Below are positions 2-16,044 of a DNA stretch of 64,000 nucleotides, piece after piece (the stretch's first letter is position 1; each line of letters starts with the position of its first letter). Origin of the DNA: Terriglobales bacterium (lineage in GTDB: Bacteria > Acidobacteriota > Terriglobia > Terriglobales > Acidobacteriaceae); NCBI GenBank assembly GCA_035561515.1, contig DATMXP010000018.1:104681-168680 (forward strand), given 5' to 3'. A model generated the notes under the pieces. It was given only the letters and a program-made list of their open reading frames with translations, did not search any database and had not been told where the DNA came from. The translations under genes and the position numbers were made by a program.

Positions 2-1645
2 TCGCCAGCGGCAGCTACGGGTGGCAAGGTCCCGGACAAAGTCAATTTCGTTTTGCCCGAGAACATCCCCGTCATGAAACAACCCAGCGATATGTCCTGC
101 TGGGCAACCGTCGCCACCATGATGGTCAACTGGAAGGAGCAACCTGCAACTCCTTACACCATTGAGGAAGTCCTAACCCGGGCTGGCCAAGAATACCTGC
201 AGAAATTCAAGAACGGTGCTGGGCTGGCGCGATCTGAGAAGTTGGCGTTCCTCAGCGCTCTTGGCATGGCTCCGGATGAGGGCAATTTCCAAAGCAACAA
301 CTACGACTACTACCTCGAAAAGCTCAAAGCCTACGGGCCACTTTGGGTGACAGTCGACGTGTCCGACACTGAACTTGCCGCCCACGCAAAAATCATCCGC
401 GGCATACGCGGTGACGGCACACCCACAGGAACCTCGCTGTTGATCATTGATCCCAACGGAGGGAAGACCTATGAGGAAACCTTCCAGCAATTCACCAAGG
501 AGTACGAGGACGTCGTTCGCGAAACTCCTGCTGGAGCCGACCTCTTCATCCAGATCGTTCGGTTCGGTGATCAGCGTGCCGTCGATGAAGAGGGGAGATC
601 TCAACCTCAACAACGCCGCCAACTGATCAACGCCTTCATCCCGAATGATGACAAGACCGTTGTCGTGAATATGATCGAATACCCATTCGATCCGGGTAAC
701 TTCAGGAACTACAAGAACTGGAAGACAGATCCCAAGGTTCAGCACAACGACATCTGGAACGACAAGCAACTCAGGCAGGTCGACAAAATCAATCAGATCG
801 CCATACACGAAACAGGATCTGAAGGTGAAGGCGCTTTCATGAAGCCGTACACTGCGCACCTCGCGGTTCTGCGCAACGGCAACATCGTTCAGTTCAACGA
901 CCTGGTCGAGATGGAGTACCACATCTCTGCATTCAACGATCACTCGATCGGAATCGAATTCGCGAACCTTTCCTGGGTTCCCGACGCCAAGGCCACAGCG
1001 GCAACGCTACAGGACAAGTACAAAGATGAAGACAAATACCTGGCAGTGTTCTGGGGAGAAGGCCGAAACGTTTACACCCTTCCAAGCGTGACTCAGCTCG
1101 ACAGGCTAGTCGAGTTGCTAACGTGGCTTGTCAGTTTCAATTCTCCTCCAGATCCGTTCAATCCCCGCCCGCACTTCGATCAGATGTGGCATCAACTCGT
1201 CTCTTACGACGACGTAAGCGGCGTATGGGATTTTCCGGCCGCCAGCATCCCGGCCACAGCTGCCGATAAGGCGAAGAAGCGTTACTTCATCATGACCTTC
1301 GGTCACCGCTATCTGACGCCGGACAATTTCCTCGATACATCCGGCATCATTTGCCACGCCACGGTAGCGAGGAATGCGGCCTACTTCACGGCGTGTGATC
1401 ACGTAGATGGAGCGCTGCCATCGCTGTACGCATGCCTTCGTATGGTTAAAAACAAAAACTCATCCGCGGCCTACGATTTGATGAAGGACCTGATGAAAAA
1501 CAAGTTCCTGAAAGTGAAAACCATTCAGACGGTTCCTATCCGGGCCACCAACAGTCAATGTGCGGAAATCATCGAGAACAATGCGCCCAAGATCGTGAAC
1601 AACATAAAGCGCGACGTTGTCCTCGTCGATTTGGATGGGATTTAA
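2..1645 (+). CDS. 5'-truncated cell-wall hydrolase/toxin-like protein: papain-like cysteine peptidase (C39/C70-like) domain fused to an N-acetylmuramoyl-L-alanine amidase (Amidase_2/PGRP) domain
   Basis: The frame is open from nt 2 with no stop before the first start-like codon (TTG at 53). N-domain motifs are QPSDMSCWATVATMM (catalytic Cys) and AHAKIIRGIRG...LLIIDPNGG (His/Asp). C-domain motifs IAIHETGS...YHISAFNDHSIGIEFAN are typical of Amidase_2. Confidence 0.6.
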   Translation, partial: SPAAATGGKVPDKVNFVLPENIPVMKQPSDMSCWATVATMMVNWKEQPATPYTIEEVLTRAGQEYLQKFKNGAGLARSEKLAFLSALGMAPDEGNFQSNNYDYYLEKLKAYGPLWVTVDVSDTELAAHAKIIRGIRGDGTPTGTSLLIIDPNGGKTYEETFQQFTKEYEDVVRETPAGADLFIQIVRFGDQRAVDEEGRSQPQQRRQLINAFIPNDDKTVVVNMIEYPFDPGNFRNYKNWKTDPKVQHNDIWNDKQLRQVDKINQIAIHETGSEGEGAFMKPYTAHLAVLRNGNIVQFNDLVEMEYHISAFNDHSIGIEFANLSWVPDAKATAATLQDKYKDEDKYLAVFWGEGRNVYTLPSVTQLDRLVELLTWLVSFNSPPDPFNPRPHFDQMWHQLVSYDDVSGVWDFPAASIPATAADKAKKRYFIMTFGHRYLTPDNFLDTSGIICHATVARNAAYFTACDHVDGALPSLYACLRMVKNKNSSAAYDLMKDLMKNKFLKVKTIQTVPIRATNSQCAEIIENNAPKIVNNIKRDVVLVDLDGI

Positions 1646-1668
1646 GCCTGGGTTCCTAAATGGCAGAT

Positions 1669-1693
1669 GCCAGCGAGATTACTTCTCGCTGGC
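1669..1693 (+). terminator. Stem-loop (9-bp perfect stem GCCAGCGAG/CTCGCTGGC) 24 nt after the stop codon; no U-tract
   Basis: Inverted repeat read directly from the sequence. The position suits a terminator, but the lack of a T-run lowers confidence. Confidence 0.3.
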
Positions 1694-1816
1694 GCTGCCG
1701 TCCCGGCATGTCAGCCAAGTGCGCCGAGAAAGGGAATAGACAGCGATCTTTGTCATCCACTCCCCATGTGCCCTCTGCGAATCCATTGCCATCCGCGGAA
1801 CATCTCAATAATCATC

Positions 1817-1978
1817 ATGGCAAAGAAAATCTCAGCCGACCACCACACCCCCGAGGAAGACCAGATCATTCGTGAGCGCACGCTCGACAAGACGATCGCC
1901 GACTCCTTTCCCGCCAGCGACCCTCCGTCGAGCAATCCCGATCCACACGACGAAGACGTCCTGATAGAAGCCGCCTGA
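1817..1978 (+). CDS. Small conserved hypothetical protein (53 aa) with a DSFPASDPP motif
   Basis: An internal ATG of the 1667..1978 ORF gives MAKKISADHH...LDKTIADSFPASDPPSS. The (D/E)xFPASDP motif recurs in small proteins of many soil bacteria (from memory). Third codon positions are GC-rich. No clear SD. Confidence 0.5.
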   Translation: MAKKISADHHTPEEDQIIRERTLDKTIADSFPASDPPSSNPDPHDEDVLIEAA

Positions 1979-2219
1979 GACATACGCTCTTCCAGTCGGG
2001 CTTCGATTGTCGCTAAGTCTCTGAAAAAACTGGCCCATAGCCGTTTTCTGCCCCTCCCTTCAGTGGTTAGGATTCCCATTCAATCCCCGAAAATCCCCGT
2101 TCACCGCTTTGTGGATGAGTAATTTGACCTGTATGTCAACAATATGGGCACTGCGACCATGAGGATGGCAGCGCAGGCAGAGTACTACCTAACCAGCTTC
2201 AAGTGCGAAAGGTGATGGC

Positions 2220-4031
2220 ATGAGCACTTCGACTCATCCGGCTACCAGCGGCGGACTGGTGCAGATTGCGCCCAATGATGTACCCAACGGGCGTTCCCTC
2301 GACACTGCGACCCTAGAAGAACTTATTCGCGAACGCGTAGCAGCAGAACGCGCTCGACTCGAACAGCAAGCCGGACTGGTTCACAAACAAGTTCACCACT
2401 TCCACAAGCCCATTGAACGGCCCTTCACAGCCGACCAGCGCGCAAGAACCACGCTGCTCTTCGGCGGACTCACGTGGAAGCACGAGAAACTCGTCCACGG
2501 TGCCCTTGAAGGCCTCGGCTACAAGTGTGAAGTAGTCCCAACGCCCAACGTAGCGGCGTTCCAGCTCGGCAAAGAGTACGGCAACAACGGCCAATGCAAT
2601 CCGACGTACTTCACCGTCGGCAACCTCGTTCAATATCTTCAGAAGCTTGAAGAGTCCGGCGTTCGCCGCGAAGACCTCATCAACAACTACATTTTCCTGA
2701 CCGCCGGCGCGTGCGGTCCGTGCCGTTTCGGCATGTATGAGGCCGAGTATCGGCTCGCGCTCCGCAACTCCGGTTACGACGGCTTCCGCGTCATCCTCTT
2801 CCAACAGTCGGGCGGACTCAACCAGTCCGATGCCGAAGCTGGACTGGAGATGAACCTCGACTTCTTCCTCAACCTGCTGAACGCGCTGAATATGGGCGAC
2901 ATCGTCAATGAAGTCGCGTACCAGATCCGCGGGTTCGAGGTGAACGCCGGCGAAACCGACGGCATCCTGGAAGAGTCAATCGACTACCTCCATGAAGTCC
3001 TCAAGAAGAAGTCTCCGTGGAAGGTCGAAGACGGACTCGGCAAGATTGGCAAGAACATGCCGATGAAGGGAACCGTCGAGTACCTCGGCAAGTTCATCAA
3101 CCAGCTTGTCAGCGACGACTACATGGAAGCGCTGAACCACGTCCGCGATCGCTACAACACGATCCAGGTCGACCGCTTCCGCGTGAAGCCGATCGTGAAG
3201 ATCACCGGCGAATTCTGGGCGCAGACCACCGAAGGTGACGGCAACTTCAACATGTTCCAGTTCCTGCACCGTGAAGGCGCGCAGGTGATCGTGGAGCCGA
3301 TCGGCACCTGGATCATGTACATGATCCACCAGGTAGTCCAGAAAATCAGGGACATGCGCGGCCTCGAAGAGGGCGCGGTCATGCCTCCGAAGTGGCGCCT
3401 CGACAAGCAGGCAAAGATCGAGTGGAACTACCGTCAGAAGCTGATGAAGCTGAAAGCAGCCGAAGTCATCTTTGCGCGTGAATACCACCGCATCATCGAC
3501 GCGCTCGGTGGCACAGCTCACCGCCTGGTTGATCAGTACGAACTCCAGCGGCTCGGACATCCCTACTACAACTCGCGTGCGGGTGGCGGTGAAGGTCACC
3601 TCGAAGTCGCGAAGAACATTTACTACACCAACAAAGAGCTGGCGCACATGGTGCTGTCGCTGAAGCCCTTCGGCTGCATGCCTTCCACGCAGTCAGACGG
3701 CGCTCAGTCGGCGGTCGTGTCGCACTACAAGGACATGATCTTCCTTCCGATCGAAACGTCGGGTGAAGGCGAGATCAACGCGCATAGCCGTGTGCAGATG
3801 GCGCTCGGCGAAGCCAAGGCCAAGGCGAAGCTGGAGTTCGCGGAAGTCGTGAAGAACACCGGCAAGACGCTCGAAGAGCTGAAGGCTTACGTCGAACAAC
3901 GTCCGGAGATGCAGAAGGCGCTGTATCACGTTCCCAAGTACAAGGGCGTGATCGGCACCGCGGCGAACTTCGCGATCCACGTTGCAGAAGCGATGGGCGC
4001 GAAGACTCCGTACCACCAGGAAGCGCACTAA
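2220..4031 (+). CDS. HAD/BCR-family (DUF2229-type) subunit, partner of the fused activase; PlsR/PlsA-partner-like
   Basis: Three spaced Cys motifs GQCNPTYF, ACGPCRFGMY and KPFGCMPS, the same pattern as the C-terminal module of the next gene. SD GAAAGGTGA lies before the ATG. Confidence 0.7.
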   Translation: MSTSTHPATSGGLVQIAPNDVPNGRSLDTATLEELIRERVAAERARLEQQAGLVHKQVHHFHKPIERPFTADQRARTTLLFGGLTWKHEKLVHGALEGLGYKCEVVPTPNVAAFQLGKEYGNNGQCNPTYFTVGNLVQYLQKLEESGVRREDLINNYIFLTAGACGPCRFGMYEAEYRLALRNSGYDGFRVILFQQSGGLNQSDAEAGLEMNLDFFLNLLNALNMGDIVNEVAYQIRGFEVNAGETDGILEESIDYLHEVLKKKSPWKVEDGLGKIGKNMPMKGTVEYLGKFINQLVSDDYMEALNHVRDRYNTIQVDRFRVKPIVKITGEFWAQTTEGDGNFNMFQFLHREGAQVIVEPIGTWIMYMIHQVVQKIRDMRGLEEGAVMPPKWRLDKQAKIEWNYRQKLMKLKAAEVIFAREYHRIIDALGGTAHRLVDQYELQRLGHPYYNSRAGGGEGHLEVAKNIYYTNKELAHMVLSLKPFGCMPSTQSDGAQSAVVSHYKDMIFLPIETSGEGEINAHSRVQMALGEAKAKAKLEFAEVVKNTGKTLEELKAYVEQRPEMQKALYHVPKYKGVIGTAANFAIHVAEAMGAKTPYHQEAH

Positions 4032-4037
4032 GACTCT

Positions 4038-4202
4038 TCACCACAGAGGCACAGAGACACAGAGAAGGATTCAGAAAAAGCTCTGTGCTCTGTGCTGATG
4101 GTGATTTCAGGCTTCGGTGGTTGCGATGTTCAACCAAAAACAAGGCTCAGGGTTAGTGGTTTTTCTAGTCGATTTCTCAGTGACTCTGTGCCTCTGTGGT
4201 GA
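4038..4202. repeat. Nested palindromic extragenic element (CACAGAG-type REP/MITE-like) inside the operon spacer
   Basis: Perfect 19-bp inverted repeat TCACCACAGAGGCACAGAG (4038-4056) / CTCTGTGCCTCTGTGGTGA (4184-4202). A third, reverse-oriented degenerate copy lies at about 4080-4104. Confidence 0.7.
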
Positions 4203-4220
4203 GCGGTTTAAGGGAGCGAA

Positions 4221-7200
4221 ATGCCAGGACTGACTGAAAAAGCCAATCCGCAAAAGAAGTACGACTTGCTCTGGATGGGTGTGGACGTAGGCTCCACCAC
4301 CGTGAAGATCACGGTCGTCGACAACGAGACCGACGAGATCCTCTGGGCTGATTACCAGCGCCACGAGACAAAGCAGCCCGAGAAGCTGCTCGAGATGCTG
4401 CACCAGATCAAGAACGACCTGCCCAGCACGCCGTACGAGAACTTCCGCGTGTTCATCACCGGTTCCGGCGGTTCGGGGATTTCCAAGCACATCGGTGCGA
4501 AGTTCGTTCAGGAAGTGAACGCGGTTTCGCTCGCCGTGGAAAAGCTCTATCCAGAGTGCGGTTCGGTGATCGAACTCGGCGGCCAGGACGCGAAGATCAT
4601 CATCTTCAAGGAAGATCCCGAGACCGGCAAAAAGAAGAAGCTGCCGTCCATGAACGACAAGTGCGCGGGCGGCACTGGCGCCGTAATCGACAAGATCAAC
4701 GCCAAGCTGCGCATTCCGGCCGACCAGCTTTGCCAGATGGGCTACGAAGGTCTGAAGCTGCATCCCGTCGCCGGCAAGTGCGGCGTCTTCGCCGAAACCG
4801 ACATTAACGGCCTGCAAAAACAGGGCGTTCCGGCCGACGAGCTGATGGCTTCGCTCTTCGAATCCATCATCCAGCAGAACCTCTCGGTTCTCACGCGTGG
4901 CAACACGCTGCGTCCCACGGTGCTCTTGCTTGGTGGTCCGAATTGCTACATCAAGGGCATGCGCGACTGCTGGAAGCACAACATCCCGAAAATCTGGGAA
5001 GAGCGCAATTACCCGCTGCCCGAAGGCGTGGATCCGAAAGACCTCATCAAGACTCCTGATAACGCGCAGTACTTCGCCTGTATCGGCGCGGTGGAGTTCG
5101 GCAAGAACGAAGATCCCGGACTCGGCACCTATCTCGGCTTCGAAAAGCTCGAGTGGTACATCACGGAAGGTCGTGCGCAGGAAAAGGCGAAAAAGGGTGG
5201 TGCGCAGGCGCTCGCCAAATCGCCCGAAGAACTCGCAGCCTTCAAGCAGAAGTACGCTAAGAAGAAGTTCGTGCCGACCACCTTCCAGCCCGGACAGGTA
5301 GTGGAAGGTTTTATCGGTATCGACGGCGGCTCAACTTCCACGAAGGCTGTGCTCGTGGACAAAGACCGCAACATTCTCTGCAAGACCTACCAGCTTTCGC
5401 GCGGCAACCCAATTGAAGACACGCAGGAAGTTCTGGCGAAGGTCGGCAAGCAGGTTACCGATCAGGGCGCCACGCTCAAGATCATGGGCGTCGGCACCAC
5501 CGGTTACGCGAAGGACATCCTGAAAGATGCCGTCGGGGCTGACGTTGCGCTCGTCGAAACCGTCGCGCACACGCAGGCCGCGTTGCACTTCTATCCAGAT
5601 GCGGATGTGATCTGCGACGTGGGCGGTCAGGACATCAAGATCATCATCCTGAAAGATGGCCGCGTAAAAGATTTCAAGCTCAACACGCAATGCTCCGCCG
5701 GCAACGGATACTTCCTGCAAGGCACGTGCGAAGGCTTCGGCTTCAAGGTCGAGGACTTCGCTGACATCGCCTTCAACGCGAAGGGCTATCCGCAATTCGG
5801 TTACGGCTGCGCGGTGTTCATGCAGTCCGACATCGTGGACTTCCAGCGCCAGGGGTGGAAGCCGGAAGAAATCATGGCCGGGCTTTGCAACGTATTGCCG
5901 AAGAACATTTGGCTGTACGTGTCGCAGATTCCGAACCTGTCGGCGATCGGCCGCAAGTTTGTGTTGCAGGGTGGTACGCAGCACAACATGGCCGCCGTGA
6001 AGTCGCAGGTTGACTTCATCGAGTCGCGCTTCAAGGGTAAGGAAGTTCAGCCAGAAGTCATCGTGCACCAGCATTGCGGCGAGGCGGGCGCAATCGGGTG
6101 CGCGTTTGAAGCCGTGCGTTTATGGGAGAACGGCAAACAGACCGAGTTCATCGGCCTCGAAGGCGTTGCTTCCATCACCTACACGACTACCCGTGAAGAG
6201 AACACGCGCTGTTATTTCTGCAAGAACAAGTGCCTGCGCACATTCATCGACGTGAAAACGGCGGTACCGAACCCGAACTACAAGCCGCCGGTGAAGACCA
6301 AGGTTCCGCTCGCTCCGGGTGCACAGCGACTCATCATCGCCACCTGTGAAAAGGGAACCGTCGAAAACGTCGAAGAGATGCGCGTCATTAAGGGCAACAT
6401 CGACGCCATCAAGAAAGAAAACCCGAACCTCGTCGAGATCGCGGCCAAGAAGGCGTTCACGTCCTACGAGCCGCCGGTCATCGCCGACCCGCTCCCGAAA
6501 CTTCAGATCACGAAAGCGCAAAAAGAACGTGCCGAGAAGATGAAGAACCGTGCCGAGCTACGTATCGGCATGCCCCGCGCACTCAACATGTATTCGTGCG
6601 GGCCATTCTTCACCGCCTACTTTGAGTCGCTGGGTGTAAAGGCCGAGAACATTTTCTGGTCCGAGTACACCAACGAGCAGCTTTACAAGGAAGGCGCGAA
6701 GCGCGGCGCCATCGACCCGTGCTTCCCGTCGAAGGTCGGTATACCGCACGTGCACAACTTGCTGTACTCGGTCCATCCGAAGAAGAAGCTCGACATCATC
6801 TTCTTCCCGATGATCGACTCGCTGCCCACCTTCCTCACGCACACTCAGTCGCAACGCGCATGTCCGACGGTAACGGCTACTCCGGCATCCGTGAAGGCGG
6901 CGTTCACGAAGGAAGGCAATATCTTCGAGGAGAAGGGCGTCATCTGGAAAGACACACTCACCTGTCTCCACGATGAGAAGATCATCCACCGCCAGATGTT
7001 CGACGACTGGAAAGATATCCTCGGCCTCTCCGAAGAAGAAAACTATAAGGCTATCGAAGCCGGACTCGCCGCTATGCGCAAGTTCGACGACGACGTCATG
7101 CGTGGCACCGCTCGTGAAGTCCTGAAGCGGCTCGAAGCCGAAGATCGTCTCGGCATCGTGCTCCTCGGACGTCCGTACCACAACGATCCTGGTATCAACC

Positions 7201-7817
7201 ACGAGATCCTGGAGGAGTTCCAGAAACTCGGCTACCCGGTCTTCTCGCAGGATTCGCTCCCGCTCGATGACGAAATCGTCTGGAAGCTGTTTGGCGACGA
7301 AGTGAAAGCCGGGCACATCCAGCATCCGATGGACGTCAGCGACGCGTGGAAGAACTCGTACTCCGAGAACACCACGCGCAAGGTCTGGGCCGCGAAGTAC
7401 GTCGCGCGGCATCCGAACCTTGTCGCCCTTGAGCTATCCAGCTTCAAGTGCGGTCACGACGCGCCCATCTATACCACGATCGAAGAAATCGTGGAGCACT
7501 CGGGCACGCCGTACTTCTGCTTCAAGGACATCGACGAGAACAAGCCCAGCGGCTCCATCAAGATCCGCGTGGAAACCATCGGCTACTTCCTGAAGCGGTA
7601 TCGCGAAGACATGGTTCGCAACAAGCACAAGAAGTTCACCATTGACGAGCAGCTCAAGAACTTCGAAGAGCAGTTGCGTCACGAGCTTCGCCTTGCTGCA
7701 AGCCTCGGCGGCGAAAAGGGAAGCTGTGGCACCCACAGCAACGCCCCCGCCGAACTGGTAGCGATTCAGGGAGCCCAACCCGTCGGCAATGAAATGGTTG
7801 AGATGGCAGGCGACTAA
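4221..7817 (+). CDS. Fusion protein: two BcrAD/BadFG-type ATPase (activase) domains + Cys-rich linker + DUF2229 HAD/BCR-like module (PlsA-like)
   Basis: Phosphate-1 motifs GVDVGSTTVKI and GIDGGSTSTKAV. Cluster Cys pairs DKCAGGTG/GKCGVFAE and TQCSAGNG/YGCAVFMQS. Linker RCYFCKNKC...ATCEKG. C-terminal motifs DPCFPSK, RACPTV and FKCGHD. SD AAGGGAG. Confidence 0.8.
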   Translation: MPGLTEKANPQKKYDLLWMGVDVGSTTVKITVVDNETDEILWADYQRHETKQPEKLLEMLHQIKNDLPSTPYENFRVFITGSGGSGISKHIGAKFVQEVNAVSLAVEKLYPECGSVIELGGQDAKIIIFKEDPETGKKKKLPSMNDKCAGGTGAVIDKINAKLRIPADQLCQMGYEGLKLHPVAGKCGVFAETDINGLQKQGVPADELMASLFESIIQQNLSVLTRGNTLRPTVLLLGGPNCYIKGMRDCWKHNIPKIWEERNYPLPEGVDPKDLIKTPDNAQYFACIGAVEFGKNEDPGLGTYLGFEKLEWYITEGRAQEKAKKGGAQALAKSPEELAAFKQKYAKKKFVPTTFQPGQVVEGFIGIDGGSTSTKAVLVDKDRNILCKTYQLSRGNPIEDTQEVLAKVGKQVTDQGATLKIMGVGTTGYAKDILKDAVGADVALVETVAHTQAALHFYPDADVICDVGGQDIKIIILKDGRVKDFKLNTQCSAGNGYFLQGTCEGFGFKVEDFADIAFNAKGYPQFGYGCAVFMQSDIVDFQRQGWKPEEIMAGLCNVLPKNIWLYVSQIPNLSAIGRKFVLQGGTQHNMAAVKSQVDFIESRFKGKEVQPEVIVHQHCGEAGAIGCAFEAVRLWENGKQTEFIGLEGVASITYTTTREENTRCYFCKNKCLRTFIDVKTAVPNPNYKPPVKTKVPLAPGAQRLIIATCEKGTVENVEEMRVIKGNIDAIKKENPNLVEIAAKKAFTSYEPPVIADPLPKLQITKAQKERAEKMKNRAELRIGMPRALNMYSCGPFFTAYFESLGVKAENIFWSEYTNEQLYKEGAKRGAIDPCFPSKVGIPHVHNLLYSVHPKKKLDIIFFPMIDSLPTFLTHTQSQRACPTVTATPASVKAAFTKEGNIFEEKGVIWKDTLTCLHDEKIIHRQMFDDWKDILGLSEEENYKAIEAGLAAMRKFDDDVMRGTAREVLKRLEAEDRLGIVLLGRPYHNDPGINHEILEEFQKLGYPVFSQDSLPLDDEIVWKLFGDEVKAGHIQHPMDVSDAWKNSYSENTTRKVWAAKYVARHPNLVALELSSFKCGHDAPIYTTIEEIVEHSGTPYFCFKDIDENKPSGSIKIRVETIGYFLKRYREDMVRNKHKKFTIDEQLKNFEEQLRHELRLAASLGGEKGSCGTHSNAPAELVAIQGAQPVGNEMVEMAGD

Positions 7818-7833
7818 CCAACGAACTCGCACG

Positions 7834-7867
7834 AAAAACCCTCGGGTCCGCCCGAGGGTTTTTCGTT
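7834..7867. terminator. Bidirectional rho-independent terminator between convergent genes
   Basis: AAAAA-CCCTCGGG-tccg-CCCGAGGG-TTTTT, with A- and T-tracts on both sides. Confidence 0.75.
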
Positions 7868-7881
7868 ACAGCAACCCACTC

Positions 7882-10047
7882 CTACCGAACTAGCTCCACA
7901 AGTCTTGGATCTGCATCCTCCATACTCACCAGTGCCAGCAGACGGTTTGCTGACACAGCCCAGAACACGACGGTCTTCTGCTCTCCATCGGCCCGATCGG
8001 TGAGATTCATCACTCCACGGCCATCGTCGGAGGTAGTATAGGTTCCAGCCCAGTCCATCAGCTGAAACAATCCTCCGCCACGATCTACACTCAGGAAAAT
8101 CGTCGCACTTCCATCCGTGGCCAAGTTCACCAAGCCTATCTCCTGCTCGGGCTTGAACGTCCTGGGCGGTCCAGCGACCGATGCGGTATAGGTTCCTGCC
8201 AAACCGTAGCCGCCGAACGGCGCGACTGTTTGTGGTTCGAAGTAGCCAAAGGGCGTACCAAATATCTGCTCACGGATAAGGTAGCCCTCATTCACTCCTG
8301 TCAGATAGGCAACACCTACGTGCGGACGGTACAGATTTAAAGGAATACCCGGCAAAGATAGTGCTACACGGCCATTTGGCGACACGGAATACGTGCCGGA
8401 ATCGGTCGATCGCATGGTGACCACGATTCCAACGTCCTCCACCACTTCGGTGTTGTCCGATACTTCGGCCAACGATCCAGTTCCGTCAGGGCGAATGACG
8501 CCAATGGTAGCAAATGGGCTCCACCAGCTTCCCGCGTCATCACTATTCAAGTTGTAGATTACGGGTATATTCCACGAAGCGTTCGTGAATGTTCCCGCGT
8601 CATTCTGCCGCCGCGCCTCGCCGCGCAAGACGGGTATCAACCATGTGTTGGCATCCGACTGGACCAGCAACATCTTTGCGTTGGAGACAATGTAATAAGC
8701 AAAGTGAAATGTCTCCGGTGAGCTATCCGGACCTGGTGTTACGGTCAGCGCAACGGTGCCTCTTCCGGTGAGCGGATCAGGCAAAGTGAACATACCTGTC
8801 ATCGTTCCGGTCGTGAAGAAGCGCATTACGCTGCCTCCCCACGTGAAATCCATTTGACCGTTGCCTACGTTTCCTTCGGTGCCACATGTGAGCCTGCCGA
8901 GTGCGGCGATGTTCATGAACGTCAAGGCTAAAACTCGGTCGCCCTGTACGGAGGCCATGGAGAAGGCATTCGTATTTTGCCGAAGCATGTAGCCGGATTG
9001 AATCGCGATTGTGGACAGCGGGGGATGGTTGGATGGGCTCTGCCACAGGGCAGCCGAGTCACCGCCCGATGTCCCGGCAACCATAAAGGTCCACGTTCCG
9101 CTGGAGGCACGCAGGGTGATCGTTCCAATTCCATCACTCTCCGCGGTATAGTTGCCGGCAATTGGCTCCATTGCACCACCGGACGCTTTCACAGTCGCAT
9201 CCCAGATGCCCGAAACATTCCCATTGGCATCGATATCGATGTGACCGGCAATCGCCATTTCACCGCCACCCTCGTAGTCACCCGCAATCTCAGACGCGCG
9301 CCAACCTTGAATCAGGAAAGCGTACGCCCCCTGCAAACGGTACTGAGAAGCCGAACCCATAACCACGAGGGCTGCAGTGCCACTCTGATTCGGGTCCGTA
9401 ACGGAAGTCGCTTTCAGTGTGACTGTAGCAGGGGCAGGGGCGTTACTCGGGGCCTCATAGGTAACCGAAGTAGCAGTCGCGTTGGTGAGTGTACCGCATG
9501 TGCTACCGCTGCAGCCGGCGCCTGAAACACTCCAAGTTACCCCTTGATTCACCGGATCGTAGCTGACCACAGCAGTAAACGGACGGCCTTGATTCGCGGC
9601 CAGACGCACAACAGCGGCGGGCCAGATTGTCACGGAAACCGGCATTAGATTGAGGTACGTGGTTCCCATGATGCTGCTGTTGGATTGCGATGTTGCAGCT
9701 ATTCTAAAGTTGATGTTCTTGGACACAAACGATGGTGCCGTGTACAACCCGTCCGCAGTGATTGTCCCGCAGTTGTCCACACAATTGATCAAACTCCAAC
9801 TGAAAGTTGCGGCGGTCCCATCTGACATCGCCGCGGTGAACCTTTGTGTTTCACCCGCACCGAGGTTCGCCCCATCAGGGATGATCTTGACGGAAGCAGG
9901 TTGTACGGATGCACTTGTGCCGCCGGCGGGAGTGGGTACCGGCGTAGATGTAAACGACGTGACGGTCCTTGATTGGGTTCCACCACACCCGGTTAAGACC
10001 GCGGCGAGGCTCAATGCAAATACAAGCAATACGCTGGTTCCTCGCAT
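7882..10047 (-). CDS. Lipoprotein with bacterial Ig-like (Big_2-like) domains and a large uncharacterised C-terminal region
   Basis: Lipobox LAAVLTGCGG. Two Ig-like segments (IIPDGANLGAGETQRFTA...; TIWPAAVVRLAANQGRPFTAVV...VTLKATSVTD). SD AGGAG before the ATG. Confidence 0.6.
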   Translation of the reverse strand: MRGTSVLLVFALSLAAVLTGCGGTQSRTVTSFTSTPVPTPAGGTSASVQPASVKIIPDGANLGAGETQRFTAAMSDGTAATFSWSLINCVDNCGTITADGLYTAPSFVSKNINFRIAATSQSNSSIMGTTYLNLMPVSVTIWPAAVVRLAANQGRPFTAVVSYDPVNQGVTWSVSGAGCSGSTCGTLTNATATSVTYEAPSNAPAPATVTLKATSVTDPNQSGTAALVVMGSASQYRLQGAYAFLIQGWRASEIAGDYEGGGEMAIAGHIDIDANGNVSGIWDATVKASGGAMEPIAGNYTAESDGIGTITLRASSGTWTFMVAGTSGGDSAALWQSPSNHPPLSTIAIQSGYMLRQNTNAFSMASVQGDRVLALTFMNIAALGRLTCGTEGNVGNGQMDFTWGGSVMRFFTTGTMTGMFTLPDPLTGRGTVALTVTPGPDSSPETFHFAYYIVSNAKMLLVQSDANTWLIPVLRGEARRQNDAGTFTNASWNIPVIYNLNSDDAGSWWSPFATIGVIRPDGTGSLAEVSDNTEVVEDVGIVVTMRSTDSGTYSVSPNGRVALSLPGIPLNLYRPHVGVAYLTGVNEGYLIREQIFGTPFGYFEPQTVAPFGGYGLAGTYTASVAGPPRTFKPEQEIGLVNLATDGSATIFLSVDRGGGLFQLMDWAGTYTTSDDGRGVMNLTDRADGEQKTVVFWAVSANRLLALVSMEDADPRLVELVR

Positions 10048-10252
10048 GATGAACTCCTGAAGAGGCCGATTCTCATGCGCACATCTTGTGCTTACATGAA
10101 CCGAGTGTCATCTTGGTTCCATCTTGAACCTGCCATGCCGCTAAATTCGTTGATAATAAGCGATTTGCTCTTGACCGCCCCTCGGTAAGGGCCGATGCTG
10201 TTGGCATCGCGGTGCCCCGATCGGCTCGAGTTGACTCGTTCCCGGGTTGGGT

Positions 10253-12016
10253 ATGTCCGGTGAGACTTCGATCTCGTGTTCTACAACGGTCCGCTTCGGC
10301 GGATATGAAGTGGATACTGTAGTCGGTGAACTGCGAAAGAATGGCCTTCGCATTCATCTCCGGGGCCAGTCCTTTCAGGTACTCGCGGCTCTCCTCGAAC
10401 GTCCCGGCGAGATTGTTACCCGGGAGCAGTTACGAACCCGACTTTGGCGAGGTCAGGTCTTTGTCGATTTTGAGAATGACCTAAATGCGATCATCGCTCG
10501 GCTTCGACAAGTGCTGTGCGACAGGGCGGAACAGCCGCGTTTCATAGAAACTGTTCCCCGGCATGGATATCGATTCATCGCTGAGGTCTCATACACATCT
10601 GTATCTCACCAGGCATACCGCCCCCGTATCCTTGTGCTTCCCTTCGTCAACTTAAGCGGAGATCGTGATAAGGAATACCTGGTCGATGCAATCACAGACG
10701 AAGTCATCACCGCGTTGGCAAGTTCCTATGGCGACCAGTTCGCAGTGATCGCCCTTACTACATCCATGCGTTTCAAGGGTACCCGCAAGGATCTAACAGC
10801 GATTGGACACGAATTGAATGTTCAGTTCATTACCGAAGGAAGCGTCCGTTGGGTCGGAGATCTTATGGGCATTAACGTTCGGCTCATTCAATCCCAAGAT
10901 CAGACTCAACTCTTCGCGCGTAGATACGAGACCTATTTGTCAGAGATTTTCCAGATGCACGCCTCTATCGCGAACGATGTCGCGGCGTGTATTCCGTCCA
11001 CCGAGCGCAAAGAGCTCGCAAGGCCCTCTCTGCGTAAACCAACGGCAGACATGGGCGCTTACGATGAGTACATCAAGGGGCGACACAAGTTATGGAAGTA
11101 CACCGCGGAGTCTATGACAGAAGCTAAGCAGCACTTCGAGGCGGCATTGGCTCGCGATCCCTCGTTTGCGGCTGCCTGTAATGCTCTTGCTGAACTGTAC
11201 TGGTCTGTTGGATTCTGGGGGTATGTCCCACCCGAACAAACCGATCGCATGGGCCGATTTTACGCACTCCGAGCTTTGGAGATCGATCCCATGTCTGCGG
11301 AGTCCCATGTCTTGGTAAGCCTCTTTTCAAAGAAAATTGGAAATAGAACCGAGTACTACGATTGGCCCTCCATCCAAAACGACATTGCGCATGCTCGTTC
11401 CCTCAATCCAGCGTTGCGGATGGTTAGAGTCCGGCACGCGATGGTTCAGGCGATACTCGGATATCCGGACCTGGCAGCTGCGGAACTGGAGCGCGCGCTG
11501 GAGTCAGATCCCTTGTGCTTCGATGTACGCGCCTGGCTGACCATGATGCTGCACTTGGGTCGGCACTTTGATCAGGCACTTCAGCAAGGTTACCGGCTTC
11601 TGGATCTTGAACCCGAGCACTTTGCCTCACATCAGTTACTGGGTTACGTCTACCTAGGGATGAAGGACTTCCAGAAGAGTATCGATGCTTTCCAGAAAGC
11701 GGCTCAACTCTCGAACGACTTGCCGATATCGCTGGGACTGCTCGGATTGTCTTTGGGGCTATCCGGGCATAAGCGAGAGGCGAAGGCATTGCTTGAACAG
11801 TTACGTAATCGCACAAGCCGCGAATACATCAAGCCGACTTGTTTTGCCTTCCTTCATATCGGGCTCGGGAACACCGACGAAGCGTTTGTGTGGACGGAGA
11901 AAGCGATAGATGCCGCTGATCGCCACATGGAGCCTATCAAGACCTATCCTTTTCTCGATCCTTTGCGCTCCGATCCCCGCTTCACGGCTTTGCTGCGCAA
12001 AATGAATCTTTCCTGA
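10253..12016 (+). CDS. Winged-helix (OmpR/CadC-type) DNA-binding protein with a TolB-N-like segment and TPR repeats
   Basis: FGGYEVDTVVGELRKNG...LLERPGEIVTREQLRTRLW...VPRHGYRFIA (Trans_reg_C), PRILVLPFVNLSGD, and C-terminal TPR-like helices. ATG at 10253 is preferred over TTG at 10247. Confidence 0.7.
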   Translation: MSGETSISCSTTVRFGGYEVDTVVGELRKNGLRIHLRGQSFQVLAALLERPGEIVTREQLRTRLWRGQVFVDFENDLNAIIARLRQVLCDRAEQPRFIETVPRHGYRFIAEVSYTSVSHQAYRPRILVLPFVNLSGDRDKEYLVDAITDEVITALASSYGDQFAVIALTTSMRFKGTRKDLTAIGHELNVQFITEGSVRWVGDLMGINVRLIQSQDQTQLFARRYETYLSEIFQMHASIANDVAACIPSTERKELARPSLRKPTADMGAYDEYIKGRHKLWKYTAESMTEAKQHFEAALARDPSFAAACNALAELYWSVGFWGYVPPEQTDRMGRFYALRALEIDPMSAESHVLVSLFSKKIGNRTEYYDWPSIQNDIAHARSLNPALRMVRVRHAMVQAILGYPDLAAAELERALESDPLCFDVRAWLTMMLHLGRHFDQALQQGYRLLDLEPEHFASHQLLGYVYLGMKDFQKSIDAFQKAAQLSNDLPISLGLLGLSLGLSGHKREAKALLEQLRNRTSREYIKPTCFAFLHIGLGNTDEAFVWTEKAIDAADRHMEPIKTYPFLDPLRSDPRFTALLRKMNLS

Positions 12017-12115
12017 CCCATCGACGCTCCTACCTGGCCTTTGGCAGATATCGCCCATTTCTGCGATGATGTTCACTAGACCAGTGGTACTAATTCAACC
12101 TTCGAGCGTGATTTC

Positions 12116-12823
12116 ATGACCACCTCCGCCACTCGACCTCTTGTTGGAGAACCCGTCGATCCCTCCTCCGCCCCTCGGCCGCGCCGCGTAACCTTCGAGG
12201 GCCGGACCATCCGGCTGGTTCCGCTTGTTGCGCACGAACACCTCGACGACCTTTGGGCCGCCACCGGAGGCCCGCAGAACGAGCATCTCTGGACCTACAT
12301 GTTCGAACATCCCTTCCAGAACCGCTCCTCCTTCGAAGCCAACCTCCAGCGCCAGGAAGAGTCCAACGATCCGCTCTACTACACCATCATTGACAAGCCT
12401 TCTGGCGACGCCGTCGGTTGGGCCGCCTACATGCGCATGAAGCCCCTGCATCGCGTCATCGAGGTGGGCAGCATCATGTACTCGCCGCGTATCCAGCACA
12501 CCGTCGGCGCCACCGAAGCCATGTACATCATGGCCAAGCACGCTTTCGAGGACATGAATTATCGCCGGTACGAATGGAAGTGCGACGCTCTCAACATGCC
12601 TTCGCGCCGCGCCGCTCTGCGCCTCGGCTTCACCTACGAAGGACTCTTCCGCCAGCACATGGTCGTGAAAGGGCGCAATCGCGACACCGCCTGGTATTCC
12701 ATGCTCGACTCGGAATGGCCTGCCCGCAAACGCGCCTTCGAGCAGTGGCTCGATCCCGCCAACTTCGACGCCAACGGGAAGCAGCGCATGCCGCTGTCAG
12801 AGCTTAACCGCATCAACCGCTGA
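12116..12823 (+). CDS. GNAT-family N-acetyltransferase (RimJ/RimL-like)
   Basis: Size and pattern fit: RTIRLVPL...HLDDLW, IEVGSIMYSP, YRRYEWKCDALNMPSRRAALRLGFTYEG. Confidence 0.7.
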   Translation: MTTSATRPLVGEPVDPSSAPRPRRVTFEGRTIRLVPLVAHEHLDDLWAATGGPQNEHLWTYMFEHPFQNRSSFEANLQRQEESNDPLYYTIIDKPSGDAVGWAAYMRMKPLHRVIEVGSIMYSPRIQHTVGATEAMYIMAKHAFEDMNYRRYEWKCDALNMPSRRAALRLGFTYEGLFRQHMVVKGRNRDTAWYSMLDSEWPARKRAFEQWLDPANFDANGKQRMPLSELNRINR

Positions 12824-12832
12824 ATTTGCGAT

Positions 12833-12867
12833 GCCCCACATCCGCCTTGGTTTGGCAGATGTGGGGC
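12833..12867. terminator. Hairpin between convergent genes (10-bp stem GCCCCACATC/GATGTGGGGC)
   Basis: Perfect inverted repeat in the 62-nt gap between the GNAT (+) and C13 peptidase (-) genes. No strong T-run. Confidence 0.4.
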
Positions 12868-12885
12868 CGAATCGCATTGCGCGAT

Positions 12886-14250
12886 CTACAAAATAGCGTT
12901 CACCGCTAACTTGCCGTCCGTTCCAGTCGCCGTCGGGGTATTCGTACCGACGCCATCCCCGTTGTCTTCTAGCCAGGGCGTCTCGCAATCTGTGTCCTTA
13001 CTCTTCGCATACAAAAAAGCTTCGAGAATGGATACATTGCCGTCCCCATTCGTATCGGGATTCGTCGTCAAGGCTGTGCCGGCATCGTCTGCGTTGTTCA
13101 GCGCGGAAGTGAAGTGGTACGAAAACGTGTCGTACTTGTAATCCGGATCCATCGCCCAGGAATACTGGGCATCGGTCGCAGCCGAAATCAGAATCCGGTT
13201 GTGGCCTCTCAAGTCGCGCAGAAACCCGCCGCTGAAGCATTGCTCAAAAAGTGCCACCATTTTGCCGAAGCTTAGGCTGTTAATCGTGTTTACGAAATCA
13301 TCATCGAACACGTCGTTTGAAGTCTGGTTGTAATAGTAGGTCGCTTCATCCCACGCATTCGCATTGATTTCGTCTCCTGGAATCACATCGGCTCTGCCGC
13401 CGCGGTTGGCCGGCGTTTCTCCGCAACTGCTGTCGTGGTAGCCGCCACCGTGATTCGTGACGAAGATGAAGAGATCATCCTTCACCGTCATCTTCGATCT
13501 CAGATACTTGATGGCATCGTTGAATCCGGCCGGAGACGCAGCATAATCCACCGTGATATCGCTGTCTTCGCCCGTGCCGCCCTTATACACGACAACAATG
13601 TTGTCATCGCTGAAGCCGTACTTGCTTCGCAGCGTCAGGTACATGAACTTCAAATCGTTCCAGTAGCGCGTGTACGCCTTCACCGCGTTCACTCCGCCGC
13701 TGTAGAGCAGCGCGTATTTGTTATGCAGAAACGGTGGTTTATGGCACAACTGCGGGTACCTCACGCAAATGGGCACAATCCGCGATTCAAAAGGACGTTC
13801 GGGCTTTTTGATGATCTTGGGCGGCGTCGGCAATTCCAGCACCGGCGTCGTCTTCCCCTTCACCACCGTTCTGTCTACCGCCAGGCGTCCCGTCGCACGA
13901 ACCAGCGAACCCTGGGCTTTCATATCGCGTAGTTGGACCGCGCCTGTCCCCCTGATCAGAATGTATACAGACTCCGGCATCGGCGTATTGATCCGGAAAT
14001 ACTTCATGTCCTTCACCAGCATCGGCACCGGATCATCCACGAAGTAGCCCTCCACCACGTATTGCTGCCGAAGGGTTGTTGCAGTCGCCTTTCTTAGGTC
14101 GATCGCTTTCAATCTCTCGATACTCGTCACTTGCGCCTTTACTTCGGGCCGCGGCGTGTCCTGGGCGAATGCACTTCCCAACGCCACAAGCATGAGAAGC
14201 ACCAACACCAAGATGCCACCCAATCCAGATGATCCCTTGAGCCTCTTCAT
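12886..14250 (-). CDS. Secreted peptidase C13 (legumain-like) family protein with a C-terminal dockerin/EF-hand-like Ca-binding repeat
   Basis: Signal peptide MKRLKGSSGLGGILVLVLLMLVALGSAFA after SD GGAGGAG. His-Gly FVTNHGGG and Cys EQCFSGGF. DTNGDGNVSILEAF and EDNGDGVGT loops. Confidence 0.6.
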   Translation of the reverse strand: MKRLKGSSGLGGILVLVLLMLVALGSAFAQDTPRPEVKAQVTSIERLKAIDLRKATATTLRQQYVVEGYFVDDPVPMLVKDMKYFRINTPMPESVYILIRGTGAVQLRDMKAQGSLVRATGRLAVDRTVVKGKTTPVLELPTPPKIIKKPERPFESRIVPICVRYPQLCHKPPFLHNKYALLYSGGVNAVKAYTRYWNDLKFMYLTLRSKYGFSDDNIVVVYKGGTGEDSDITVDYAASPAGFNDAIKYLRSKMTVKDDLFIFVTNHGGGYHDSSCGETPANRGGRADVIPGDEINANAWDEATYYYNQTSNDVFDDDFVNTINSLSFGKMVALFEQCFSGGFLRDLRGHNRILISAATDAQYSWAMDPDYKYDTFSYHFTSALNNADDAGTALTTNPDTNGDGNVSILEAFLYAKSKDTDCETPWLEDNGDGVGTNTPTATGTDGKLAVNAIL

Positions 14251-14438
14251 AAACTCCTCCCGGCCATGACTTCTGGTCTGATGAAGCCCGAACACCTCTG
14301 CGTTCGGGTCGGATTTTCCCCTCATCTCCCGTCGCCACCTTTCGAACCCTCACTAAGTGGTGCAATTCGCTGATCAATCGTGACGTACCAAAATGGAACT
14401 GGCGCTCCCTCCGATCCGCAACGCATCGAATTTTGCCC

Positions 14439-14484
14439 TTGACAACCTATACTGTGTTACATACAGTATGTTTCATACAGTATG
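14439..14484 (+). promoter_or_regulatory. Sigma70-like promoter (TTGACA-17-TACAGT) overlapped by a palindromic PadR-type operator
   Basis: TTGACA at 14439-14444 and TACAGT at 14462-14467. Palindrome ATACTGT-N7-ACAGTAT at 14449-14469. Direct repeat CATACAGTATG at 14460-14470 and 14474-14484, the latter including the padR ATG. Confidence 0.5.
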
Positions 14485-14829
14485 CGTGACACAGTAGAAA
14501 CCGCCATGAACCAGGAAGTACTCGACAATCTCCGTCTTGAGCTTCGTCGGGGATGTCTCATCCTGGCCGTCCTGGCGGAACTTCGCACCGAACGCTACGG
14601 CTACACGTTGCGCAAGGCCCTCGCGGAGCAGGGAATGGAAATCGACGAAGGCACTCTCTACCCGCTGCTGCGCCGGCTGGAAAGCCAGGGACTACTCGTT
14701 AGCGAGTGGCGTGAAGAGGACAAGCGAAACAAGCGGTTTTACCGCCTTTCCGCCGACGGCAAGGTAATCCTCAAGCAGCTCGCCGCCGAATGGAAGACCA
14801 TCAGCGCATCGCTCGACGGCATTCTTTAG
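14482..14829 (+). CDS. PadR family transcriptional regulator
   Basis: GYTLRKALAEQGMEIDEGTLYPLLRRLESQGLLVSEW...KRFYRLSADG is a canonical PadR wHTH. Confidence 0.85.
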   Translation: MRDTVETAMNQEVLDNLRLELRRGCLILAVLAELRTERYGYTLRKALAEQGMEIDEGTLYPLLRRLESQGLLVSEWREEDKRNKRFYRLSADGKVILKQLAAEWKTISASLDGIL

Positions 14830-14865
14830 CCCGCGAACCGCGCTTGAAAGTGATTGGAGTTGGTT

Positions 14866-15840
14866 ATGGATATGATCGAGCGTTACCTCCAGGCTGTGAA
14901 GTTCGCACTTCCCGAAGCGCAGCGCGACGACATCGTGAAGGAACTGCGCGACAGCATCTTGTCGCAGGTCGAGGAGCAGGAAGGCAGCCTCGGCCGCCCG
15001 TTGACGGAAGGCGAAACAGCCGAATTGCTGAAGCGACTGGGCAGCCCGTTCCAGTTGGCGAGCCGCTATCGCAAGCAGCAGTTCCTGGTCAGTCCCACCC
15101 TGTTTCCCATCTACTGGAAGGTTTTGAAGGCGGCGCTCGGCATCGCTCTTCTCGTCTCGGCAGCGGGATGCATCGCCATCGCCGCGGCAGGGAAGCCAAT
15201 CTGGGAAAGTCTCCGTGGATTGCTTCAGTTTCCGAACCTGGCTATCACCGTCTTTGCCTGGGTCACTCTCGTATTCGTCGGCATGGAATTCTTTGGCGCA
15301 AAGTTCCAATGCACCGAACGCTGGGATCCCCGCGCCTTGCCGCCCCTCGTCAAGGATGCCCCTCGTAAATCGCGCTTCGAGCTGATTGCCGAGCTTCTAA
15401 TTGAACTCGTGCTCGGTGTGTGGTGGCTGACCGGATTGCATTACAACTACCTGATCATGGGACCCGGCGCGAACTACCTGAATTTCGGTCCCGTGTGGCT
15501 CCAGCTCTATCCGTTGTTCGTCGCCTTGGTTTGCATCGACGTCGGCTTCACCGCGGCTCAACTCTATCGTCCGCAATGGACCAGCGGAGCTCGTATCTCC
15601 GTCGTCGTCAAGGGCGCAGTTGGACTCGTCGTGCTCTACTTCCTGCTCAACGCGCCGGATCTCATGGTCCCCGTCAATCCCACTGCGCAATGGCAGAACC
15701 TCGTACACAACCTCAATCGGGCGCTGCATCTCGGATTGACGGTCGCTTTCATCGTGATCGTGGTGAACATCGGCATCAGCCTCGTCAAACTGATTGGCAA
15801 GCGCATTGGACGAGCCCATCAAGCCATCGTCGGATCGTAA
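14866..15840 (+). CDS. Membrane protein with an N-terminal HAAS/DUF1700-like domain (PadR partner)
   Basis: MIERYLQAVKFALPEAQRDDIVKELRDSI... is followed by about 6 hydrophobic helices. GGAG lies 6 nt before ATG 14866. Confidence 0.6.
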   Translation: MDMIERYLQAVKFALPEAQRDDIVKELRDSILSQVEEQEGSLGRPLTEGETAELLKRLGSPFQLASRYRKQQFLVSPTLFPIYWKVLKAALGIALLVSAAGCIAIAAAGKPIWESLRGLLQFPNLAITVFAWVTLVFVGMEFFGAKFQCTERWDPRALPPLVKDAPRKSRFELIAELLIELVLGVWWLTGLHYNYLIMGPGANYLNFGPVWLQLYPLFVALVCIDVGFTAAQLYRPQWTSGARISVVVKGAVGLVVLYFLLNAPDLMVPVNPTAQWQNLVHNLNRALHLGLTVAFIVIVVNIGISLVKLIGKRIGRAHQAIVGS

Positions 15841-15886
15841 GCTTAAATTCCTCCTACGGCGATCCAGATGCTTGGGTCAGCCCTCA

Positions 15887-15916
15887 CCCTCGGGTCCGCC
15901 CGAGGGTATTTTTTTA
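15887..15916 (+). terminator. Rho-independent terminator
   Basis: CCCTCGGG-tccg-CCCGAGGG followed by TATTTTTTT. The 20-nt hairpin is identical to the one at 7839-7858. Confidence 0.7.
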
Positions 15917-16044
15917 TCCGGTGAGATCGAACCCAAGTGGCTGCTCGAGCTGTGCCCAGAGGCTTGGATTTATTCCGCACGCTTGATACCTAAACTAACG
16001 CTTCACGACCAAATACTAACGACTAACAACTAACGACTGGTTTT

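Follow-up and report, generated by a model that had tools for sequence, protein, structure and literature searches.

The 64,000-nt window analysed here, from contig DATMXP010000018.1 of a Terriglobales bacterium (all coordinates are those of the whole window), carries at 2220-7817 two co-directional genes encoding proteins of 603 and 1198 amino acids (aa), together referred to as set 1. Their sequences give good support for set 1 being a split, activator-fused iron-sulfur (Fe-S) reductase of the PlsA/PlsR-Ger type, ATP-driven and apparently soluble, that represents a distinct subfamily, designated G1. This subfamily is widespread in Terriglobia. A sequence-only reading of the same DNA had proposed a split module of this type with the activator fused on, and this was borne out by the domain architecture, by alignment of the smaller protein to the Red2 region of fused relatives, and by gene fusions; the open reading frames, 2220-4031 and 4221-7817, both on the forward strand, lie exactly where it had placed them. 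The locus comprises the following features:

2220-4031 (+): small-subunit gene, 603 aa, Red2/PlsR-equivalent; open reading frame and translation
4038-4202 (+): intercistronic hairpin with 29-nt inverted-repeat arms, 4038-4066 and 4174-4202
4221-7817 (+): large-subunit gene, 1198 aa, Act1-Act2-4Cys linker-Red1 ('BBD' architecture)
4269-5120 (+): Act1, first BcrAD_BadFG/ASKHA ATPase domain, residues ~17-300; putative cluster ligands Cys148 and Cys187; Pfam/NCBIfam
5298-6128 (+): Act2, second BcrAD_BadFG ATPase domain, residues ~360-636; Cys491 and Cys530; best Pfam stretch 365-624
6177-6359 (+): linker module, residues ~653-713, small and beta-rich in the AlphaFold2 (AF2) model; Cys664, Cys667, Cys671 and Cys709 (CxxCxxxC...C)
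6561-7625 (+): Red1, DUF2229-type reductase/dehydratase-like module, residues ~781-1135; Cys834, Cys881 and Cys1077
7683-7817 (+): C-terminal tail, residues ~1155-1198; variable; AF2 confidence (pLDDT) <50

Architecture of the large subunit and the cysteine skeleton

Pfam detected two BcrAD_BadFG domains (E 9.7e-74) and a DUF2229 domain at residues 781-1013 (E 3.7e-46) in the 1198-aa protein, the same composition that had been read from its motifs, and NCBIfam an acyl-CoA dehydratase activase domain. All of the motifs reported earlier are present, both in this protein (GVDVGSTTVKI, GIDGGSTSTKAV, DKCAGGTG, GKCGVFAE, TQCSAGNG, YGCAVFMQS, RCYFCKNKC...ATCEKG, DPCFPSK, RACPTV and FKCGHD) and in its partner (GQCNPTYF, CGPCRFG and FGCMPS). 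Direct reading of the sequence located DVGST, GGQD and GGP in Act1, and DxGST, GGQD and GG(P/T) are kept in both ATPase domains. A PDB sequence search with Act2 matched HadI, HgdC, MbdPQ and DCCP-R; likewise, the activator domains of the AF2 model (pLDDT 79) superpose on HadI, MbdQ/P, HgdC and DCCP-R, with target-normalised Foldseek template-modelling (TM) scores of 0.8-0.9, and the matches obtained with the full 1198-aa model were dominated by ASKHA kinases. The 4-Cys linker is presumed to form an additional metal or Fe-S site. No transmembrane helix was found in either set-1 protein.

Cysteines were compared across eight family members (set 1, a second set in the window described below as set 2, and the proteins of Brevibacillus, Fusobacterium, Listeria, Collinsella, Haliovirga and Acetoanaerobium), among which 14 are invariant; the cysteine pairs, linker and triads are likewise invariant among the set-1 orthologues. 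In the large subunit these are C148/C187 (Act1), C491/C530 (Act2), C664/C667/C671/C709 (linker) and C834/C881/C1077 (Red1), and in the 603-aa partner C126, C168 and C486. The cysteine pairs, triads and linker first picked out in the single sequence are thereby conserved in orthologues, in set 2 and in PlsA-type proteins of five other genera. Within both the Act1 and the Act2 pair the spacing is 39 residues, as between the cluster ligands of HgdC.

The C-terminal tail is variable, and a -GD dipeptide ends the large subunit in 107 of 115 Terriglobia orthologues. A tail cysteine (GSCGTH) occurs in the close relatives of the window, whereas some orthologues carry Cys/Gly-rich N-terminal extensions instead (MGCSSGSCGTGS..., MSCGSGCGCGS...).

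The small subunit

BLAST aligned the 603-aa protein with the C-terminal Red2 regions of fused PlsA-type proteins at E values from 1e-12 to 1e-20, including those of Haliovirga (1011-1449; 1e-20), Listeria (992-1255; 6e-18) and Collinsella (1012-1469; 2e-15), and likewise with the separate small subunit of Fusobacterium. Gene fusions in relatives join the two proteins in both orders, as partner-BBD (P0303, 1623 aa) and as BBD-partner (P0307, 1579 aa). On this sequence evidence, the 603-aa and 1198-aa proteins are the two subunits of a single enzyme.

The AF2 model of the small subunit (pLDDT 71) has as its six best PDB fold matches only chains of DCCP, BzdNO and MbdON, all of the DCCP/benzoyl-CoA reductase family, led by the DCCP chains 7yyl_A and 6eno; these matches are weak (E 2e-3 to 2e-2, TM 0.3-0.4), and a PDB sequence search with the same protein gave no meaningful match. 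The likeness to 2-hydroxyacyl-CoA dehydratase/benzoyl-CoA reductase (HAD/BCR) enzymes drawn in the sequence-only reading did not extend to the HGD-D profile (PF06050), which matched neither set-1 protein in Pfam, and the partner lacks the DUF2229/HGD-D fragments of PlsR-type partners; unlike the 603-aa protein, the partner of set 2 and the PlsR-type partner of Fusobacterium each matched DUF2229, at 1.8e-6. The alpha/beta-like pairing that it had described stands insofar as the 603-aa protein is a second reductase-type subunit, and falls short in that kinship of Red1 and Red2 did not emerge when their profiles were compared (with hhalign, the 603-aa family matched the Red1 region at only E 0.11 across 37 columns). 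These alignments were too shallow, and therefore the alpha/beta paralogy of Red1 and Red2 rests on transitive BLAST and Pfam links.

Conservation, selection and the intercistronic hairpin

In a scan covering a single genome for each GTDB species, relatives of the small subunit were encoded in at least 586 genomes, with orthologues 66-96% identical. In the orthologue comparisons, identities were 73-95% for the large and 73-96% for the small subunit, the named orthologues being Terriglobales, Bryobacteraceae or Acidobacteriia metagenome-assembled genomes (MAGs), with no cultured host named among the close ones, and the nearest relatives are MAGs of Terriglobales/Acidobacteriota, as expected from the earlier attribution of the genome to an Acidobacteriota-like organism. 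Synteny and Terriglobia neighbourhoods were counted in the best 80 of the at least 586 genomes, all Terriglobia MAGs, and the large-subunit gene directly follows the small-subunit gene in 78 of these 80 loci. Relative to a 92%-identical relative, dN/dS is 0.047 and 0.045 for the two genes. Both set-1 genes are real and under strong purifying selection.

The two genes are separated by a hairpin whose arms are 93% complementary and whose RNA fold (4038-4202) reaches -84 kcal/mol (z = -6.3), with the ribosome-binding site of the 1198-aa gene, AAGGGAG (4210-4216), starting just past its end. Rfam matched no family to the hairpin or to region 1500-8200, and a promoter and terminator scan returned nothing exceeding shuffled controls. 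The spacers of orthologous loci contain GC-rich palindromes unrelated in sequence to the hairpin of the window, and it seems to be the structure, rather than the sequence, that recurs across orthologues.

Placement in the PlsA/PlsR-Ger family

A family scan of 1.84 billion representative proteins yielded 1542 clusters at E<=1e-30, and a neighbour-joining tree was built from 73 near-full-length proteins (996 columns, 100 bootstraps), in which PlsA-type references were plasmid-collection records from Listeria, Fusobacterium, Collinsella, Haliovirga and Acetoanaerobium and the sampling excluded C. perfringens PlsA/PlsR and T. maritima Ger. The tree resolved G1 as a clade with a long internal branch, composed of set 1, Brevibacillus and P0299-P0353, whose members share 33-60% identity with set 1 and 25-30% with Listeria PlsA. 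The PlsA-type clade, G2, holds Listeria, Acetoanaerobium, Fusobacterium, Collinsella and Haliovirga together with a Parascardovia (Bifidobacteriaceae) and a Ruminococcaceae cluster.

Set 1 shares with PlsA/PlsR and Ger the tandem ATPases with cysteine pairs, the 4-Cys motif followed by DUF2229 with three cysteines, and an adjacent Red2 homologue. This shared architecture and the tree position together place set 1 in the PlsA/PlsR-Ger architectural family, outside the sampled PlsA clade. C. perfringens PlsA/PlsR (CPE1195/CPE1194) and the fused PlsA of Listeria, Enterococcus, Bifidobacterium and Lactococcus have the same Act1-Act2-4Cys-Red1 plus Red2 order, the same 14 cysteines and no transmembrane helix, and are soluble proteins of one or two polypeptides. 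Set 1 differs from them in its partner, which is 603 rather than ~420 aa long, is devoid of the DUF2229 fragment and has its gene before, not after, that of the large subunit, in a large subunit with ~190 extra residues, including the conserved -GD tail, and in its aerobe-type Terriglobales host. With Ger (T. maritima Tmari_0479; D. alkenivorans SHJ90043) it has in common the BBD core and the ATP-dependent Fe-S reductase type; Ger, however, is a single fused polypeptide with C-terminal HGD-D/DUF2229 fragments, which were undetected in the 603-aa partner. The BBD core is conserved in all alkyl-ether producers (PMC13159169).

The counterpart closest in organisation is Acid_0921/0922 of S. usitatus Ellin6076, a pair from the Terriglobia that also has the small subunit first, is of near-identical size (Acid_0922, 1188 aa, 30.2% identity to PlsA; Acid_0921, 589 aa, 20.9% to PlsR; PMC10087280) and has the same proposed role. 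Orthology of this pair to set 1 is suggested by size, order and taxonomy rather than by sequence comparison; orthologues of set 1 in Solibacter/Bryobacteraceae MAGs are 70-77% identical, and the published S. usitatus identities to C. perfringens PlsA and PlsR agree with the G1-to-G2 distances measured here.

More distant similarities connect set 1 to the HAD/BCR systems HgdAB+HgdC, HadBC+HadI and BcrABCD/MbdONPQ, which have HgdC-type ATPase domains with a cysteine pair equally spaced and catalytic subunits carrying three-Cys [4Fe-4S] sites, and to whose BzdNO and MbdON the partner is weakly similar in fold. Unlike these enzymes, set 1 has its activator duplicated and fused, an extra 4-Cys module and no CoA-ester genes nearby. 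Classical HAD/BCR membership was rejected, as PF06050 was undetected, fold similarity to BzdNO/MbdON is weak and an association with CoA-transferase/ligase or aromatic or amino-acid fermentation genes was not found in the window, the 80 Terriglobia loci or ~13 other G1 lineages. DCCP with its ATP-dependent reductase partner DCCP-R (C. hydrogenoformans; 6ENO, 7YYL) is the best, though weak, structural match of the 603-aa subunit, but is a homodimer with a separate reductase and a 7-Cys motif, CX19CX18-19CX29CX166-170CX32-34CX32C, that provides six ligands for an [8Fe-9S] cluster (PMC7317905). Membership of the DCCP group was likewise rejected, as this motif is absent from set 1, which has three conserved cysteines per module.

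Genomic neighbourhoods of G1 pairs

Among the 80 Terriglobia loci there are no conserved flanking genes other than the pair itself, and dnaE-accA upstream is only clade-specific. Even L087, the 92%-identical relative, has different flanks: DUF2461 and YceI genes directly follow the pair there, and the 7882-16000 region of the window is absent, which makes this region a probable insertion. It encodes a 721-aa protein that matched no Pfam family, a Trans_reg_C plus TPR regulator, a GNAT protein, a HAAS-domain protein and a protein with a weak Peptidase_C13 (legumain-like) match. In one Terriglobia sub-lineage a 169-aa VOC/glyoxalase-family gene lies between the subunit genes (L052, L057, L058, L062, L064, L065, L071, L074 and L078) or downstream of the pair (L004), and the same sub-lineage has dnaE-accA upstream; the VOC/glyoxalase and dnaE-accA assignments were read by eye from the sequences and not from Pfam.

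Every G1 lineage inspected has a partner of 417-628 aa, again with no Pfam match, adjoining the large gene on its upstream or downstream side. In the aerobic Firmicute Brevibacillus laterosporus (L082, 13785-18743), whose G1 pair is 47%/40% identical to set 1, the pair is directly followed on the same strand by genes for an EEP phosphatase, a DagK-type lipid kinase, an MGDG-synthase/UgtP-like glycosyltransferase and a lysophospholipase-type hydrolase. Upstream, the pair is preceded by a lanthipeptide-dehydratase cluster. In a metagenomic lineage (L094 517-16126, and also L095; 43% identity) the pair is embedded in a co-directional cluster with two radical SAM/SPASM proteins, a class III aminotransferase, a 318-aa protein of no assigned family, a MacB-type ABC exporter and an alpha/beta hydrolase, in which a flippase-like LPG_synthase_TM gene overlaps the stop of the large G1 gene and a radical SAM protein with an HMPTM zinc ribbon has Tes as its best NCBIfam match (227 bits, below the cutoff of 450; TrsS 220). 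This cluster may serve to make a modified or membrane-spanning lipid, or else a natural product. MMPL and GT21 genes occur near a third pair (L098), a B12-radical SAM gene near another, and the remaining lineages have SDR/ABC-2, HAD hydrolase or EutB genes, or nothing informative. No CoA-transferase or CoA-ligase gene was seen beside the pair in the 80 Terriglobia loci or in ~13 G1 lineages, for which Pfam calls are incomplete and many neighbours have no call. The sequence-only reading had named a well-separated clade with a different conserved neighbourhood, such as CoA-transferases, as an outcome that would speak against it; the separate clade was found, and a conserved neighbourhood of the CoA-transferase type was not. 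On balance, the G1 neighbourhoods lean towards a lipid role.

A second set and other features of the window

A second pair, set 2, is encoded on the reverse strand of the same window:

37124-40198 (-): set 2 large gene, 1024-aa BBD protein
35838-37160 (-): set 2 partner gene, 440 aa, after the BBD gene; weak DUF2229 fragment kept

Its sizes and gene order resemble those of C. perfringens PlsA (1004 aa) and PlsR (420 aa), it is 26-29% identical to set 1, and in the tree it forms a long branch sister to G2 (98/100). Set 2 is conserved at 68-88% identity in Terriglobales and shares contigs with set 1 in relatives (3 contigs). Beside it, at 34163-35089 (+), lies a gene for a lone 308-aa BcrAD_BadFG-family protein (E 2.3e-34), which might act as an activase of its own or be an ASKHA protein resembling sugar kinases.

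As reported from the sequence, the window encodes heme A synthesis, by ctaB (UbiA-family heme O synthase, 24559-25482, reverse strand) and ctaA (COX15 heme A synthase, 25479-26498, reverse strand), which overlap by 4 bases. These two genes imply that the host is capable of aerobic respiration and, together with sugar-utilisation genes likewise encoded in the window, agree with an aerobic heterotroph; CoA-transferase or CoA-ligase genes and genes for aromatic or amino-acid fermentation were not found in the window. A 530-aa protein encoded at 53-1645 (+) combines Peptidase_C70 (AvrRpt2-like cysteine protease) and N-acetylmuramoyl-L-alanine amidase domains, an unusual pairing.

Proposed function and alternative readings

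The most likely function of set 1, to which we assign a rough probability of 0.55, is the conversion of lipid esters to ethers. By analogy with HgdC-type activators and with PlsA/Ger, the tandem ATPase domains would form an intramolecular pseudo-dimer holding a [4Fe-4S] cluster on Cys148/187 and Cys491/530. A low-potential donor would reduce this cluster, ATP hydrolysis would then drive the electron, possibly via the 4-Cys linker, to three-Cys [4Fe-4S] sites in Red1 and Red2, and the ester carbonyl of the substrate would be reduced and dehydrated at these sites. As substrate, an acyl ester in a membrane glycerolipid would be likeliest; it would become a vinyl or alkyl ether, probably at low oxygen, and the product would be the source of the ether bonds in iso-C15 mono- and diethers and in lipids of the branched glycerol dialkyl glycerol tetraether (brGDGT) type. 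The cluster types, electron path, substrate and product given here are all inferred from these better-known systems.

This reading is consistent with the literature on the family. Among DUF2229-type proteins in the literature searched, function has been demonstrated only for the lipid ester reductases PlsA/PlsR and Ger (PMC13159169, PMC12838417, PMC9702350): PlsA/PlsR convert diacyl lipids to plasmalogens, and Ger forms saturated alkyl ethers upon anoxic expression only (PMC13159169). For the PlsA of Listeria and that of Bifidobacterium there is experimental support (PMC9702350, PMC12838417), and L. cremoris PlsA is active aerobically in E. coli (PMC12838417). S. usitatus produces iso-C15 mono- and diethers plus brGDGTs and lacks ElbD, for which reason Halamka et al. 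2022 proposed that its PlsAR homologues turn esters into ethers during brGDGT formation; their Table S5 has one match each for PlsA and PlsR and two for Tes (PMC10087280). The proposal is discussed further in PMC13023045, where Chen et al. 2025 are cited for the coincidence of Tes and a Ger homologue with brGDGTs in S. usitatus and for the tetraesters made by K. versatilis, which has Tes only. Ger and PlsA are not yet distinguishable by sequence, and several paralogues per genome may tune ether types (PMC13274423).

Several observations weigh against a role of set 1 in ether formation. The kinship to PlsA/PlsR/Ger claimed in the sequence-only reading holds for the architectural family and the cysteine skeleton and not for the clade, since the tree separates G1 from the rest with 100/100 bootstrap support and identities to PlsA-type proteins are only 28-32% for the large subunit and ~21% for the partner. 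Set 1 lacks two features of PlsA/PlsR-Ger enzymes, namely PlsA-clade membership and the DUF2229/HGD-D fragments of Red2 (BBD+HDDH etc., Sahonero-Canavesi 2022), and the 603-aa protein gave no Pfam or NCBIfam match at all, even at E<=10. As had been stated earlier, no lipid genes flank set 1 in the window, nor do any flank the pair in the 80 Terriglobia loci, and the lipid-leaning neighbourhoods, 3 of ~13 G1 lineages, are anecdotal. Clusters of the HAD/BCR type are sensitive to oxygen, and the host carries genes for aerobic respiration. Set 2, which is more PlsA-sized, could be the lipid enzyme rather than set 1, and no experimental test of Acid_0921/0922 or another G1 member was found in the literature searched.

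The ether-lipid reading could also be taken further, in that G1 would be a functionally distinct lipid ester reductase for micro-oxic or aerobic hosts, supplying the ether step of brGDGTs and iso-C15 diethers, with the -GD tail and enlarged partner as docking or oxygen-protection adaptations and with the two sets dividing the chemistry between them; such a division could run between sn-1 and sn-2 esters, between vinyl and saturated ethers, or between diesters and membrane-spanning tetraesters as substrates. We regard this extension as speculative, the odds being roughly three to one against it.

Slightly less doubtful than that extension, and clearly less probable than ester-to-ether conversion itself, is that the same machinery acts in G1 on another substrate, such as an ester outside the glycerolipids, a compound of specialised metabolism, a CoA thioester or an aromatic ring, with ethers, if any, being formed by set 2 or another pathway. 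The position of G1 as a separate clade on a long internal branch and the strong divergence of its partner, which has no Pfam match, would be consistent with such a change of substrate, as would the retention of two paralogous sets together in related contigs, suggesting non-redundant roles, and heterogeneous neighbours (SDR + ABC-2, HAD hydrolase, EutB, aminotransferase + radical SAM/SPASM) that could mean specialised metabolism. However, CoA-transferase, CoA-ligase and beta-oxidation genes are absent beside the inspected G1 members, HGD-D, the catalytic domain of CoA-ester dehydratases and benzoyl-CoA reductases, was undetected, the full PlsA cofactor skeleton is kept, and the ether-making S. 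usitatus has only such a pair as its PlsA/PlsR match in Table S5.

Set 1 might alternatively be a DCCP-like reductase of small molecules (acetylene-like or others) with its reductase fused. DCCP chains 7yyl_A and 6eno are the best structural matches of the 603-aa model and DCCP-R is among the activator matches, but the six-ligand 7-Cys motif is replaced by three conserved cysteines per module and the similarity, confined to weak fold matches, has no sequence-level counterpart, which makes this reading improbable. Least credible of all is the idea that set 1, as a relic of an anaerobic enzyme in an aerobic host, is decaying or has lost its function, a view that the heme A synthesis genes of the host and the general oxygen sensitivity of the enzyme family might encourage but that we rejected on the selection and conservation data, given a dN/dS of ~0.05 for both genes, intact frames in hundreds of species and the retention of all ligand cysteines and ATPase motifs.

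Implications

Few proxies for palaeotemperature and pH on land are as widely used as the brGDGTs, and for the formation of their ether bonds in Acidobacteria there are so far only candidate enzymes. For S. usitatus, which is proven to produce brGDGTs, a single PlsA/Ger-type candidate is listed, and set 1 is its counterpart across Terriglobia. The ether-lipid hypothesis itself is not new, having already been published for the S. usitatus counterpart (PMC10087280); what is added here is the recognition of G1 and its breadth, the fusions in two orders, the shared cysteine skeleton, the lipid- and Tes-like neighbourhoods, the co-retained sets, the -GD tail and the hairpins. G1 thereby offers a sharper target for functional tests, and a better marker of ether-lipid producers in metagenomes than generic 'Ger homologue' BLAST matches. 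Should the lipid role fail, G1 would still represent an ATP-driven, low-potential reductase common in aerobic soil bacteria.

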